Shown piece by piece: positions 28,379 through 47,513 of a stretch of DNA of 64,000 nucleotides. The notes beneath the pieces were generated by a model, which was not told where the DNA came from, searched no databases, and saw nothing but the letters and a program-made list of their open reading frames with translations. The translations under genes and the position numbers were made by a program. Positions within the stretch are counted from its first letter, which is position 1. Every line of letters starts with the position of its first letter. This stretch comes from Alphaproteobacteria bacterium (GTDB taxonomy: Bacteria > Pseudomonadota > Alphaproteobacteria > RF32 > CAG-239): NCBI GenBank assembly GCA_048463395.1, contig DBFWPL010000002.1, positions 24,098-88,097 of the forward strand, read 5' to 3'.

Positions 28379-30199
28379 TTAGATATTATCGCCCGGTTTG
28401 GCACGTTTTCTCAAAATCGGGTCGAGAATACGTTTTCTCAAACGAAGTGACTTTGGCGTAACTTCCAGAAGTTCGTCTTCCTGAATGTAAGATAAACCTT
28501 GTTCCAAAGTCAGCTTGCGAGGCGGAATCAGGTCAATAGCTTCATCTTTTCCGGCAGCACGGATGTTGGTGAGCTGTTTGGATTTTGTCGGGTTAACCTC
28601 TAAGTCGTTAGACTTGGTGTGTTCGCCGATAATCATGCCGACATAAACCGGAGAGTTGGCGTCAATAAACATCGGACCGCGGTCTTGCAGTTTCCACAAA
28701 GAATAAGCAATGGCCGTTCCGGCTTCGGATGAAATCAGTACACCGTTGCGACGGCTGTCGATTTCGCCTTTGTATGGTTCATAGGCTTTGAACAAACGGT
28801 TCATAACGCCGGTACCTCTGGTGTCGGTCAAGAATTCGGAGTGGTAACCGATTAAGCCGCGGGAAGGAGCGTTGAAAATCAAACGGACTTTGTTGCCGAT
28901 TTGAGAAGGAATCATCTCAATCAATTCAGCACGTTTCTGTCCCAATTTTTCAACAACGGTACCGGAAAATTCTTCGTCAACATCTATGACGACTTCTTCG
29001 ATAGGTTCCAAAAGCTGTCCGTTTTCATCTTTTTTCATCAAAACTTTTGGACGGGAAATGGAAAGCTCAAAGCCTTCGCGACGCATGGTCTCAATCAATA
29101 CGCCCAATTGCAGTTCGCCTCGTCCGGCAACTTCAAAGGAATCAGTGGTATCTGTGCGGGAGATTTTGAGGGCGATGTTGCCTTCGGCTTCTTTGCACAG
29201 TCTGTCCCAGATCATACGGGAGGTTACTTTGTCTCCTTCTCTTCCGGCCAGCGGAGAATCGTTGATGGAGAAGGTCATGGCCAATGTCGGAGGATCAATC
29301 GGTTGAGCATGGATGGAATCGTTTACTTCCAAGGCACAAATTGTGTCGGCAACCGTTCCTTTAACAACACCGGCCACAGCGATAATGTCGCCGGCATGAG
29401 CTTCTTCCAAAGCAACACGGTTTAAGCCCTGATAGGCTAAAATTTTGCTGATTCTGACTCTTTCAAGTTCTTTGTTTTCGCCATTCAAAACCTTAACCGT
29501 ATCATTAACATGTAAGGTACCGGACTGTACTTTTCCGGTTAGCAGTCGGCCGATAAATTTATCGGCTTCCAATGTGGTGGCTAACATAGAGAAAGGTTCG
29601 TTCGGTTGGCAGTTTGGTTCCGGAACATAAGAGAGAATCAGCTCAAACAAAGGAGTTAAATCTTTTTTCTCATCACCCATTTCCTTAACAGCCCAGCCGT
29701 TGCGTCCGGAAGCATACAGTACAGGGAAGTCTAACTGTTCGTCAGTGGCGTTCAGGCTGACGAACAAGTCAAAAATTTCGTTTAACACTTCATCAACGCG
29801 GGCGTCGGCTTTGTCAGCCTTATTAATAACAACAATAGGTTTTAAGCCTACTTTAAGAGCTTTCCCCAACACAAATTTGGTTTGCGGCATAGGTCCTTCT
29901 GAGGAGTCAACCAACAAAACAACGCCGTCAACCATGGACAAGATACGTTCTACTTCACCGCCAAAGTCAGCGTGTCCCGGTGTGTCTACAATATTAATAT
30001 GTGTTCCGTTCCAATCTACGGAAGTGCATTTGGAAAGAATCGTAATTCCTCTTTCTCTTTCCAGATCATTACTGTCCATAACGCAGGTTTCTACTTTTTG
30101 ATTTTCTCTGAAAGTGCCGCTTTGTTTTAACAATCCATCCACCAATGTTGTTTTACCGTGGTCAACGTGGGCTATGATGGCAATATTTCTCATACTCAT
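28379..30199 (-). CDS. typA: translational GTPase TypA/BipA
   Basis: AIIAHVDHGKTTLVD G1 motif, DTPGHADF G3 motif, EF-G-like domain organisation, 606 aa. Confidence 0.9.
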   Translation of the reverse strand: MSMRNIAIIAHVDHGKTTLVDGLLKQSGTFRENQKVETCVMDSNDLERERGITILSKCTSVDWNGTHINIVDTPGHADFGGEVERILSMVDGVVLLVDSSEGPMPQTKFVLGKALKVGLKPIVVINKADKADARVDEVLNEIFDLFVSLNATDEQLDFPVLYASGRNGWAVKEMGDEKKDLTPLFELILSYVPEPNCQPNEPFSMLATTLEADKFIGRLLTGKVQSGTLHVNDTVKVLNGENKELERVRISKILAYQGLNRVALEEAHAGDIIAVAGVVKGTVADTICALEVNDSIHAQPIDPPTLAMTFSINDSPLAGREGDKVTSRMIWDRLCKEAEGNIALKISRTDTTDSFEVAGRGELQLGVLIETMRREGFELSISRPKVLMKKDENGQLLEPIEEVVIDVDEEFSGTVVEKLGQKRAELIEMIPSQIGNKVRLIFNAPSRGLIGYHSEFLTDTRGTGVMNRLFKAYEPYKGEIDSRRNGVLISSEAGTAIAYSLWKLQDRGPMFIDANSPVYVGMIIGEHTKSNDLEVNPTKSKQLTNIRAAGKDEAIDLIPPRKLTLEQGLSYIQEDELLEVTPKSLRLRKRILDPILRKRAKPGDNI

Positions 30200-30213
30200 T
30201 TGTTTATTCCCTA

Positions 30214-30376
30214 AATACTTGTCATGTCATGAGTTTGGTTCCTCGCGTACGCTTATCTGTACGCGTCGTCGCCGAACTCATTTCCAGCACAAGCATTTAT
30301 GGAATAAATACCGTGCCGGACTAGAACTTGTCGTGTCATGAGTTTGGGTCCATTTTGTACGTGAGGAACCAAACTT
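30214..30376 (-). promoter_or_regulatory. structured typA 5' leader with direct and inverted repeats (alternative pairings)
   Basis: Direct repeat cttgtcatgtcatgagtttgg (30218-30238) and cttgtcgtgtcatgagtttgg (30327-30347). agtttggttcctcgcgtac (30232-30250) is the perfect reverse complement of gtacgtgaggaaccaaact (30357-30375). The second unit also folds locally. Confidence 0.4.
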
Positions 30377-30560
30377 ATGCTTAACAGCCGTTTTATTGCA
30401 GGGTTTTTATTGTTTTCTTATCAGTTATTATCTGCAATTTAAAAATTCACCTTAACATACCAATTTGATTTTAAATTACAAGAAATAACTATATTTTTTT
30501 AATTTTTAGTTGATTTTGTCTAAAAAATGATTTAGATTAAGGAAAATAAATTATAAAACT

Positions 30561-30941
30561 ATGTTGAAAATTCTGGAAATTATAGTGTTTGCCGCTCTTT
30601 GTCTGGGATGGGGAGTTTGTGCTTTTGGGTGTCTGGTTTGTATTATGCAGTTTTACATTCAGATAGTGGTTCAATGCCAATCTGTTCGTCGGAAAACTGA
30701 CTGGGCTGTTGAGCTTATCCAGACGTTGTTTATGATCGGAATTCTGATTTGCTCATTTTTTTTGGCAGTTTGGGATTGGAGTTTTATTTCATGGTCTCTG
30801 AGCCCTTGGGTAAAATGGCTGCTTGTTCTATTTGCACCACACTTATGGTGTATTTTTTGCGATGCCGTTATTTTAGCTTATCTTATTGACTGGAAAAAAC
30901 TTTTCAAAGTAATCTTCACATTAAAACTAAAAGCTTTATGA
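30561..30941 (+). CDS. small polytopic membrane protein (hypothetical)
   Basis: 126 aa, 3-4 TM segments, W/C-rich. Preceded by a very AT-rich 190-bp region. Confidence 0.45.
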   Translation: MLKILEIIVFAALCLGWGVCAFGCLVCIMQFYIQIVVQCQSVRRKTDWAVELIQTLFMIGILICSFFLAVWDWSFISWSLSPWVKWLLVLFAPHLWCIFCDAVILAYLIDWKKLFKVIFTLKLKAL

Positions 30942-31354
30942 GTACACTTGTACAGGGGCAGGCAGCTCTTCTCATCGCCATGGCGGTGGTTTCGGCAGGT
31001 TATTTCTGCTGGACGTTGATCAGGTATCTTGTTCTTCGGAAGTCTTTTTTGACGCATGAAGAAATTATTCCTTCTAAGGAAGCCTCTTTCTGGATTCGAA
31101 TGGTGTTTGCGGTTTTGGCAATAGCCTTTATCGCAGTCAATTGGTCCGATGAAGATTGGGGCGGGCGGATAATCTACTGCTTCTTTGCCATCGGTTTTTA
31201 TGCCGAAGGAATTCATGTTATCCATGGATTGGTTATTATCCTGTTAGGAATACTGAGAGGTGTGGTAAATATGTTTGTCAGTCTTTGTAAAGACTTTTTC
31301 CGTATTTACCGATTGATATGTAAGTTATTCGTTCATAAGTGCGATAAAGAGTGA
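30938..31354 (+). CDS. small polytopic membrane protein (hypothetical, paralog-like to upstream gene)
   Basis: ATGA overlap with the upstream gene. Shared motif F(L/I)AV(W/N)DWS after a TM helix. Confidence 0.45.
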   Translation: MSTLVQGQAALLIAMAVVSAGYFCWTLIRYLVLRKSFLTHEEIIPSKEASFWIRMVFAVLAIAFIAVNWSDEDWGGRIIYCFFAIGFYAEGIHVIHGLVIILLGILRGVVNMFVSLCKDFFRIYRLICKLFVHKCDKE

Positions 31355-38815: not shown

Positions 38816-39106
38816 ATGAAAATCAGACCGTTACAAGATCGTGTCGTCGTCAGAAGACTGGATGAACTGACAAAAACTTCCGGAGGAATTATTATTCCGG
38901 ATACAGCAAAAGAAAAACCAAGTGAAGGTATTGTGGAAGCTGTCGGACCGGGAATGATTTCTCCGGAAGGTAAAGTTATTCCAATGGCTGTCAAGGCAGG
39001 TGATAAGGTGCTGTTTGGCAAATGGTCGGGTACAGAAGTCAAACTTGAAGGAGAGACATATTTGCTGATTAAAGAAGCTGAGATTTTAGGTGTTATTGAA
39101 GAATAA
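38816..39106 (+). CDS. groES: co-chaperonin GroES
   Basis: [14 protein letters not shown]...[13 protein letters not shown]. 96 aa. Confidence 0.9.
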
Positions 39107-39120
39107 AAATTTTTGGATAA

Positions 39121-47233: not shown

Positions 47234-47325
47234 TGGAGAGATGGCAGAGTGGTCGAATGCGGTTGACTCGAAATCAATTGTACTCTTTACGGGTACCGGG
47301 AGTTCGAATCTCCCTCTCTCCGCCA
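47234..47325 (+). tRNA. tRNA-Ser (anticodon CGA)
   Basis: Manual fold: acceptor ggagaga/tctctcc, D-arm gca-gagtggtcgaa-tgc, anticodon arm gttga-ctCGAaa-tcaat, long variable arm, T-arm gggag-ttcgaat-ctccc, discriminator G, encoded CCA. Confidence 0.85.
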
Positions 47326-47327
47326 TT

Positions 47328-47368
47328 TATAACAAAGCCCTCCCTTGTGGGGGGCTTTGTTATAAATG
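47328..47368 (+). terminator. terminator hairpin after tRNA-Ser
   Basis: aacaaagccctcccttgtggggggctttgttataaa. Confidence 0.6.
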
Positions 47369-47369
47369 A

Positions 47370-47513
47370 TGAGGAAGAGTGGAATTTGAACTCCCGGTGA
47401 GGAGTTCGGAGCAGATAGTTGGCGAGCACGATTTTAAGAAGTGCGAGGCTTACGATGCGAAAGGGCCCCATTGGTTTTGCCAATGGGAATTTACAATCTC
47501 CCTCTCTCCGCCA
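47370..47513 (+). repeat. tRNA-linked structured element, copy 2
   Basis: Leader hairpin gaactcc-cggtga-ggagttc, then ggagttcg (tRNA-Ser T-stem 5' half plus ttcg). Core is ~90% identical to copy 1 (gagcagatagttggcgagcacgattttaagaagtgcgaggcttacgatgcgaaagggccccattggttttgccaatgggaatttac). It ends in aatctccctctctccgcca, identical to tRNA-Ser from T-loop nt 58 through CCA. A terminator-like hairpin (47514-47550) follows. Confidence 0.7.

Follow-up and report, generated by a model that had tools for sequence, protein, structure and literature searches.

The leader of a typA/bipA gene in an alphaproteobacterial contig raises the question of what a cluster of direct and inverted repeats is doing immediately in front of a gene for a housekeeping GTPase. 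The original prediction read the cluster as two units that pair in either/or fashion, in the manner of a riboswitch, attenuator, or RNA thermometer, and kept a small MITE as its fallback. The answer that we favor, with modest confidence, is that the repeats come from a long-hairpin element of ~115 nt, present in tandem as a complete and a truncated copy; this element would serve as a translation-limiting leader of typA and is the locus-resident member of a family of such hairpins.

The gene lies on the minus strand (28379..30199; 606 aa by ORF list and translation) of the 64,000-nt stretch of DNA that was analyzed as a whole, hereafter the window. Its homologues are named translational GTPase TypA, with the domains GTP_EFTU, EFG_C, and BipA_C, and the window protein is 88-100% identical to proteins from uncultured gut and rumen MAGs that go by the names Alphaproteobacteria bacterium, Azospirillum sp., Proteobacteria bacterium CAG:495, and Candidatus Scatocola, the last a genus placed in Rhodospirillales. 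The repeats are contained in the 361-nt spacer between typA and a divergent membrane ORF of 126 aa (30561-30941). This ORF adjoins a second small membrane-like ORF of 138 aa (30938-31354), also divergent from typA; Pfam has no family on record for either. Three such small ORFs are found in the contig L004, and in most other species pfkB is directly upstream of typA. Within the spacer, a putative typA promoter can be placed at 30454..30481 (minus strand), with a -35 element TTGTAA (30476-30481), a 16-nt spacer, and TGG plus TATGTT (30454-30459). It is part of a block, TTG(A/T)AAnTTAAnnT..TG.TAT(T/G)GT plus AAGGCGAATTT, that most of the 80 species compared retain upstream of typA, with the hairpin element present or absent; the variants run TTGAAA or TTGTAA, 16 nt, TG.TATTGT or TATGTT, and then AAGGCGAATTT. 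A consensus promoter scan of the window did not have 30454-30481 among the sites that it listed. Judged from the position of the block, typA transcription would start near 30447, and the whole repeat region would therefore belong to the typA 5'UTR. As for the wider window, plus-strand GC skew is strongly positive (0.11-0.25) across most of positions 1-64000 and falls to about 0-0.08 at 28-34 kb, where typA is on the minus strand, and at 48-56 kb. A tRNA gene at 47235-47322 has its 3' end repeated in inverted orientation 58 nt downstream (47295-47317 and 47376-47398, 23 nt, 83%), with a strong terminator-like palindrome nearby at 47324-47368; the inverted repeat at 47376-47398 may be the remnant of an integration site.

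Most of the repeats that had been pointed out are real. The 21-mer CTTGTCATGTCATGAGTTTGG is found exactly at 30218-30238 and with one mismatch at 30327-30347, a match that did not arise once in 100 shuffles, and the direct repeat reaches 26 nt (30217-30242 and 30326-30351, 92%). The upstream 'unit 2' folds on itself as described, through 15-nt arms at 30337-30351 and 30365-30379 with 87% complementarity. The 19-mer long-range inverted repeat between the units exists too, but it is not perfect as had been claimed: 18 of 19 positions are matched, the mismatch being A.C in typA-sense RNA, and the repeat extends to 23 nt at 91% (30228-30250 and 30357-30379). Overlooked at that stage was that 'unit 1' is a long hairpin as well. 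This complete proximal unit (30203..30319, minus strand) gives a covariance-model match at 30197-30324 of 113 bits (E = 1e-20) and aligns with 26 orthologous units. Along the RNA it consists of a 5' extension, an anti-Shine-Dalgarno (anti-SD) arm, P1, the P2 apex, P1', and an SD arm. The outer stem, P0, joins a 3' arm at 30203..30222, which holds the Shine-Dalgarno sequence AGGGAA (30207-30212), to the anti-SD 5' arm at 30289..30308 (UUUAUUCCAUAAAUGCUUGU) over 20 nt at 90%, both arms being on the minus strand and identified by inverted repeat, folding (MFE structures), and covariation; P0 thus covers the 20 nt that end 3 nt before the typA AUG. Above it, 30229..30281 (minus strand; inverted repeat and the sequence itself) contains P1, the internal loop CGACGA / AGGAA, and P2. 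P1 (30272-30281 with 30229-30238) has compensatory changes at 10 of its 10 pairs, and the P2 apex CGCGUAC-loop-GUACGCG (30244-30265, arms 30244-30250 and 30259-30265) matches the motif of the family described below. At the 5' end, a sub-hairpin termed H5 (30284..30319, minus strand), in which CCGGCACGGUAUUUAU pairs with AUAAAUG.UUGUGCUGG, competes with the P0 5' arm. Relative to shuffles, the leader folds far more stably, with z = -4.8 for the typA strand and z = -7.4 for its complement.

Across species the unit has the typA-strand consensus GGCACGGCGUUUUCUUUCAUAAAUGGCCGUGCUGGAAG, P1, GACGA, CGUGUAC, loop, GUACACG, AGGAA, P1', and GACAUGACGACCAUUUAGGAAAGAAA up to the AUG, and the unpaired modules GCUGGAA, GACGA / AGGA, and GACAUGA are conserved. 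Three functional readings of individual motifs were considered and rejected. A conserved 4-codon uORF (AUG-N9-UAG) in the 3' arm fails because AUGAC(G)ACCAUU is present family-wide and copies away from typA have no in-frame stop. Mimicry of the sarcin-ricin loop (GUACGCGAGGAACC against GUACGAGAGGACC) as a means of TypA autoregulation was dropped in view of the Watson-Crick pairing of GUAC in P2, with covariation, as well as the variability of AGGA and the occurrence of the motif throughout the family instead of at typA specifically. Reading GACGA / AGGA as a kink-turn requires a register that breaks P2, as judged by inspection and pair counts.

The upstream 'unit 2' (30326..30379, minus strand) is, by comparison with the contigs L001 and L019, a truncated and rearranged copy of the proximal unit. 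It has become a short hairpin whose 5' arm is a near-perfect complement of the proximal P2'/P1' strand GUACG(U/C)GAGGAACCAAACU, and it is this change that produces the long-range repeat. The original prediction made that repeat the center of a switch, with 30357-30379 pairing with 30228-30250 in alternation with the local hairpins so as to regulate typA. Folding lends this something: the ensemble centroid of the 211-nt window leader uses the long-range pairing and leaves the last ~30 nt, SD included, unpaired, and predicted SD accessibility at 37 C is 0.22 for the full leader vs 0.11 for the proximal unit alone. The MFE structure, on the other hand, retains the local hairpins, and cross-copy pairing is possible in any tandem hairpin repeat. 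The pairing is also not conserved. L019, whose typA is 91% identical at the nucleotide level, has one full unit and a normal, P1/P2-only partial copy; single-copy species have no upstream partner, and tandem species carry full copies. Both the direct repeat and the long-range inverted repeat of 19-23 nt are therefore by-products of a partial tandem duplication and not a conserved switch, and a regulatory role for their alternation is very improbable. Copy number differs even where typA does not: the window, L001, and L002 are identical in typA DNA and L001 has one extra 109-nt unit, which could be real variation or an assembly artifact of a 109-nt tandem repeat.

The proximal unit has a different evolutionary record. 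In a comparison that took the typA locus and up to 10 kb of flanking sequence from each of 80 species, plus several closer contigs, the ~115-nt unit was found directly upstream of the typA AUG in 33 of the 80 by nhmmer, as one copy in 21, two in 6, and three in 6, the multiple copies being in tandem. The idea of a conserved structured element in what is putatively the typA 5'UTR is thus borne out, with strong covariation. When the covariance model was run over 1.59 Mb, all matches above 52 bits were directly upstream of typA and on the typA strand. Run on 27 units, RNAalifold folds them into three coaxial helices, P0 (including the SD), P1, and P2, with compensatory changes at 25 of the 36 base pairs, and the pairing of the SD in P0 is itself kept through compensatory changes. 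Among the aligned cells, 94.9% are paired vs 79.0% in shuffles, a level that none of 500 shuffles reaches, and sliding the partners leaves 42-54% (about 45%). The typA-sense strand is the better folder in 23 of 27 units, and G.U exceeds A.C by 49 to 21 in a tally of pair-type counts and by 20 to 12 in a structure-blind count; the latter figures come from a redone count, as the first was confounded by internal loops and palindromic double counting. Divergence in the unit is also low: 0.04 vs 0.20, 0.01 vs 0.23, 0.02 vs 0.41, and 0.06 vs 0.43 for unit vs typA fourfold sites in four species pairs, and 0.05 vs 0.30 between the window and L019. The unit accordingly changes ~5-20 times more slowly than the fourfold sites, unpaired positions included, and at saturation it stands at 0.30-0.35 vs 0.50-0.59. 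The typA-leader unit is under constraint, and its P1 sequences follow species groups, which indicates vertical descent. The original prediction had proposed that absence from close relatives would argue against a conserved regulatory RNA. This check cuts both ways: a sister species with 88% nucleotide identity in typA lacks the element, yet many more distant species keep it. In 11 contigs the sister species retains only the 3' arm with the SD and has lost the 5' arm, and its leader looks like a deletion product. It is one of 47 species of the 80 without the full unit or 5' arm, and this absence weighs against a role for the leader hairpin.

What would such a hairpin do to the ribosome-binding site? 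In ten element-bearing constructs folded in silico at 15, 25, 37, and 42 C, the SD is 65-90% paired (probability unpaired 0.10-0.35) in hairpins of about -45 to -55 kcal/mol, vs a probability unpaired of 49-96% in two species without the 5' arm. The flatness of these values over temperature bears on the proposal of an RNA thermometer controlling a cold- or stress-related GTPase. An A/U-rich basal stem does occlude the SD, and BipA is needed at low temperature in E. coli (PMC8313970). Nevertheless, occlusion is predicted to hold from 15 to 42 C, with accessibility nearly flat at 0.10-0.35. Known thermometers are, moreover, far less stable than a hairpin of this energy, and we consider a thermometer extremely unlikely.

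A second fold of the unit deserves more attention. H5, formed from the 5' part of the unit, uses part of the anti-SD arm, and most units fold it with z of about -3 to -6; the window H5 by itself has -19.8 kcal/mol (z = -5.6). Native combinations of 5' and 3' parts average -14.9 vs -10.6 kcal/mol for inter-species chimeras, and none of 19 chimeras reaches the native energy of the window H5. A fixed-register covariation count for H5 is weak, with 61% paired vs 57% in shuffles, because the register differs between species. Together these calculations give the alternative fold moderate support. They also invite the hypothesis of a true switch, in which a ligand or protein acting on the conserved apical and middle internal loops would choose between H5, with the SD free, and P0, with the SD occluded. 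The folding of H5 in most units, the advantage of native combinations over chimeras, and the conservation of the unpaired modules count in favor of such a switch, and the persistence of the apex over contig GC contents from 0.35 to 0.70, in one case on a probably acidobacterial contig, suggests a trans factor. We still consider it quite unlikely: P0, P1, and P2 together are ~30 kcal/mol more stable than H5, no Rfam family matches, H5 covariation in fixed register is weak, and H5-like 5' extensions are present in copies away from typA too, most family members lying outside 5'UTRs and antisense to their neighbors.

Those other copies bear on the fallback of a small MITE, which holds in part. The 64-kb window has no second copy of the unit and no dispersed hairpin, but the unit belongs to a dispersed hairpin-repeat family present in relatives and in metagenomes. 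A search of the 1.59 Mb by regular expression and nhmmer located 38 further long hairpins of 130-150 nt in the typA flanks of relatives, none of them adjacent to typA itself and some of them in tandem (for example L049:20654-20801, L092:4339-4477, and L085:3969-4353). They share the apical core G-Y-GUAC...GUAC-R-U-GAG and have similar arms, and, lying within 10 kb on either side of typA in L019-L098, all are in the orientation of typA whatever the direction of the flanking genes. The typA unit and the family have in common an apex G-Y-GUAC-loop-GUAC-R-Y flanked by GACGA / AGGA. The middle module of the typA unit, GCUGGAAG / GACAUGAC, resembles GCAAGG / GACAC of the family, and its basal sequences CAUAAAUGG / CCAUUUAGG resemble GAUAAUGAG / CCAUUAGAC. 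An intermediate type is seen in L039, where two extra copies combine a typA-type apex with dispersed-type arms. The pfkB gene upstream of typA has its own leader with typA-type remnants, SD included, in L064 and L037; at L064:8410-8454 and L037:8630-8684, what remains is either the 3' arm of a typA-type unit together with the SD (GACATGACGACCATTTAGGAAAGAAA..ATG) or an entire but degraded unit. Dispersed-type copies are also found directly upstream of the dnaE start codon at L022:14579-14900 (in tandem) and L027:17888-18020, and they are a second instance of the hairpin family in a 5' leader.

Scanning metagenomes for GACGACGTGTAC-N5-12-GTACACGAGGA extended the family to 36 contigs (L099-L134) with GC from 0.35 to 0.70, and typA is downstream of the copy in none of the 36. 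Each match tips a long hairpin, and the arms differ among copies yet stay mutually complementary. In L102, and likewise in L099, L123, and L121, the apical motif tops a GC-rich long hairpin on contigs of 61-70% GC. A large acyl-CoA synthetase/hydrolase fusion on L102 is closest to proteins of Acidobacteriota/Thermoanaerobaculaceae MAGs (57-61% identity), and this high-GC contig is probably acidobacterial. The strand that reads GACGA is the better folder in most metagenome copies (28 of 33) and most dispersed copies (27 of 32), and isolated helix mismatches on it are G.U vs A.C at 19:5 and 13:3, respectively. By crude ORF calling, the flanking genes (upstream, then downstream) are arranged (+,-) for 14 and (-,-) for 8 of 32 dispersed copies, and (+,-) for 10 and (-,-) for 6 of 36 metagenome copies; for the latter, 22 downstream genes are on the opposite strand and 6 on the same one. 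On the GACGA strand, the 3' end of the element usually touches the stop codon of an opposite-strand gene or runs a few bases into it. Family copies are thus mostly antisense to an adjacent gene, mostly at gene 3' ends and outside 5'UTRs, so the family as a whole may not act in mRNA. Ten flanking genes that were scanned are all housekeeping, with neighbors such as DnaK, MutL, RecR, and GroES, and no transposase or recombinase gene was seen among them. Past movement is indicated at the groES-groEL spacer, which is empty (25-50 nt) in more than 40 species, as it is in the window at 39043-39110, and filled by hairpins of different subfamilies in L084 (3633-3779) and L095 (1010-1330), the L095 insert supplying the last groES codons and stop. 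Inspection of the L084 junctions showed no clear target-site duplication at this filled/empty site; several metagenome copies are flanked by TA, though inside A/T runs. The typA unit is a member that has stayed at its locus; the larger family to which it belongs is dispersed and strand-specific, resembles REP or MITE elements, and was probably mobile at one time.

Such a pedigree suits a reading in which the element is a selfish or neutral repeat with no role at typA, its arms kept complementary by palindrome-correcting template switching and recent duplication. The presence/absence polymorphism of the family at an orthologous site points this way, as do tandem copy numbers from 0 to 3 with partial copies, the many species that are missing the full unit, the lost 5' arm of the sister species, and the window's upstream copy, which resembles a quasipalindrome 'correction' product. 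We regard it as unlikely, though not negligibly so, since the unit evolves far more slowly than typA fourfold sites even at unpaired positions, P1 tracks the species groups by vertical descent, SD pairing is maintained through compensatory changes, and DNA-level arm correction does not predict that G.U is favored or that the sense strand folds better.

Another reading is set at the level of DNA. Family members, the typA copy included, might act as single-stranded DNA or cruciforms in recombination, transposition, or as a replication-linked site, with the position at typA incidental. The 38 dispersed copies that lie up to 10 kb from typA share one chromosomal orientation, which would fit, as would the abutment of the 3' end on opposite-strand stop codons, and G.T pairs stabilize hairpins of single-stranded DNA too. 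But the strand that folds better at typA is that of the mRNA, SD included, and neither a transposase nor a recombinase adjoins the copies, the scanned neighbors being housekeeping genes. The better-folding strand in the window is also C-rich, and, judged by GC skew, it would presumably not be the lagging-strand template. We give this reading little probability.

A more ambitious proposal combines several of these elements: the dispersed hairpins would be a new, cross-phylum class of structured RNA or single-stranded DNA with the apical module GACGA-CGUGUAC...GUACACG-AGGA, its apical and middle modules would be read by a trans factor, and in one alphaproteobacterial clade a copy in the typA 5'UTR would have been exapted as an H5/P0 switch. 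It is tentative and on balance unlikely; if true, the exapted switch would tie synthesis of a ribosome-assembly GTPase to that trans factor.

In the translation-limiting leader that we prefer, the element is a fixed feature of the putative typA 5'UTR in one clade of uncultured Alphaproteobacteria from gut and rumen, related to CAG:495, 'Ca. Scatocola', and 'uncultured Azospirillum'. Once transcribed, the leader would form an interrupted hairpin of ~37 bp with the SD in its 3' arm and the complement of the SD in its 5' arm, and by occluding the ribosome-binding site this hairpin would limit or condition translation of TypA. For a housekeeping GTPase, a hairpin of -45 to -55 kcal/mol that keeps the SD ~80-90% paired whatever the temperature seems too strong a repressor unless it is opened. 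Two routes of relief can be envisioned: the RNA may be kinetically trapped in H5, which competes for the anti-SD arm, or the long duplex may be processed or unwound, for example by RNase III. If transcription passes through the element and repression and its relief operate as outlined, the locus would be a clear natural case of a repeat element kept for a long time in a housekeeping leader, where it provides the ribosome-binding site as well as the mask over it. It would also open a testable way into the control of TypA/BipA levels in gut Alphaproteobacteria that are abundant but uncultured. Furthermore, it would bring to light an undescribed hairpin family whose conserved module spans low-GC gut bacteria and a high-GC contig that is probably acidobacterial, whose strand bias is striking, and whose copies tend to sit on stop codons.

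How does the element compare with known systems? Rfam 15 was searched with the whole window at the gathering threshold, with the leader at E values up to 10, and with 12 loci that carry family members; nothing relevant matched, so the reading as a riboswitch finds no counterpart in a riboswitch or any other Rfam family. A blastn search of a plasmid collection and a scan of viral contigs returned no match to the hairpin element. In the literature, the motif sequences returned primers only, and the searches turned up nothing relevant on regulation through typA/bipA leaders and no paper matching the hairpin family. With neither an Rfam match nor a matching paper found, the dispersed family is undescribed. 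Nor does the evidence support a typA-specific riboswitch as a reading of the typA-leader element. The element resembles SD-sequestering leaders, such as the platforms of riboswitches and thermometers, in its predicted anti-SD/SD pairing and the competing upstream hairpin H5, and it differs from them in having no Rfam-class aptamer, no predicted melting, and a family mostly outside 5'UTRs. Riboswitches are confined to 5'UTRs near functionally linked genes, whereas the copies here are next to unrelated housekeeping genes.

Among described elements, the REP/REPIN-type extragenic palindrome comes closest. The GTAG and CGTC super-families of REPs are 20-40-nt palindromes with a GTAG or CGTC tag, and CGTC REPs, which predominate in Alphaproteobacteria and are without a known transposase, are defined by the CGTC tag, a stem of 8-9 bp starting with A-T pairs, a loop of 4-5 nt, and a CCA tail (Di Nocera et al. 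2013, PMC3733652). REP-type repeats are thought to act as RNA elements (PMC3733652). Like REPs, BIMEs, and REPINs, the family consists of extragenic, strand-specific hairpins that, by crude ORF calling, are mostly after genes and between convergent genes, and its copies cluster and can form large hairpins. Membership in the GTAG/CGTC REPs was considered and rejected, as their tags and geometry are absent and the apex is instead GACGA-CGUGUAC-N5-9-GUACACG-AGGA. In place of the CGTC REP design, the module has GACGA, a 7-bp stem ending in GUAC, a loop of 5-9 nt, the return stem, and AGGA, and it tips a hairpin of 110-150 nt with variable, covarying arms.

Integron attC sites offer another comparison. 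They are hairpins of variable sequence in which one strand folds better, and they are located after stop codons with the folding strand antisense and in a shared orientation. The family likewise consists of variable hairpins with strand-biased folding and one orientation that lie at stop codons with the folding strand antisense. In contrast to attC, it conserves the tip and not the base, its neighbors are housekeeping genes instead of cassettes, and the core sites RYYYAAC / GTTRRRY are not consistently present, the basal sequences fitting GTTRRRY only occasionally.

For function, the closest analogue would be the MITE hairpins found in 5'UTRs. Correia/NEMIS elements of Neisseria and ERIC elements of Yersinia are inverted-repeat elements of 100-150 nt that lie between promoter and start codon, vary in presence among relatives, and as long RNA hairpins can alter mRNA processing and translation. 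Correia elements are almost identical to one another, have defined TIRs, and duplicate a TA target. The typA element resembles both types as a 100-150-nt inverted repeat in a putative 5'UTR that is present or absent among relatives, and, as with MITEs, its family shows presence/absence polymorphism at an orthologous site, the groES-groEL spacer. Unlike Correia elements, family copies have loops and architecture in common but not arm sequence, with no duplication at the one clear filled/empty site, and the typA copy is not a recent arrival but an old and constrained one.
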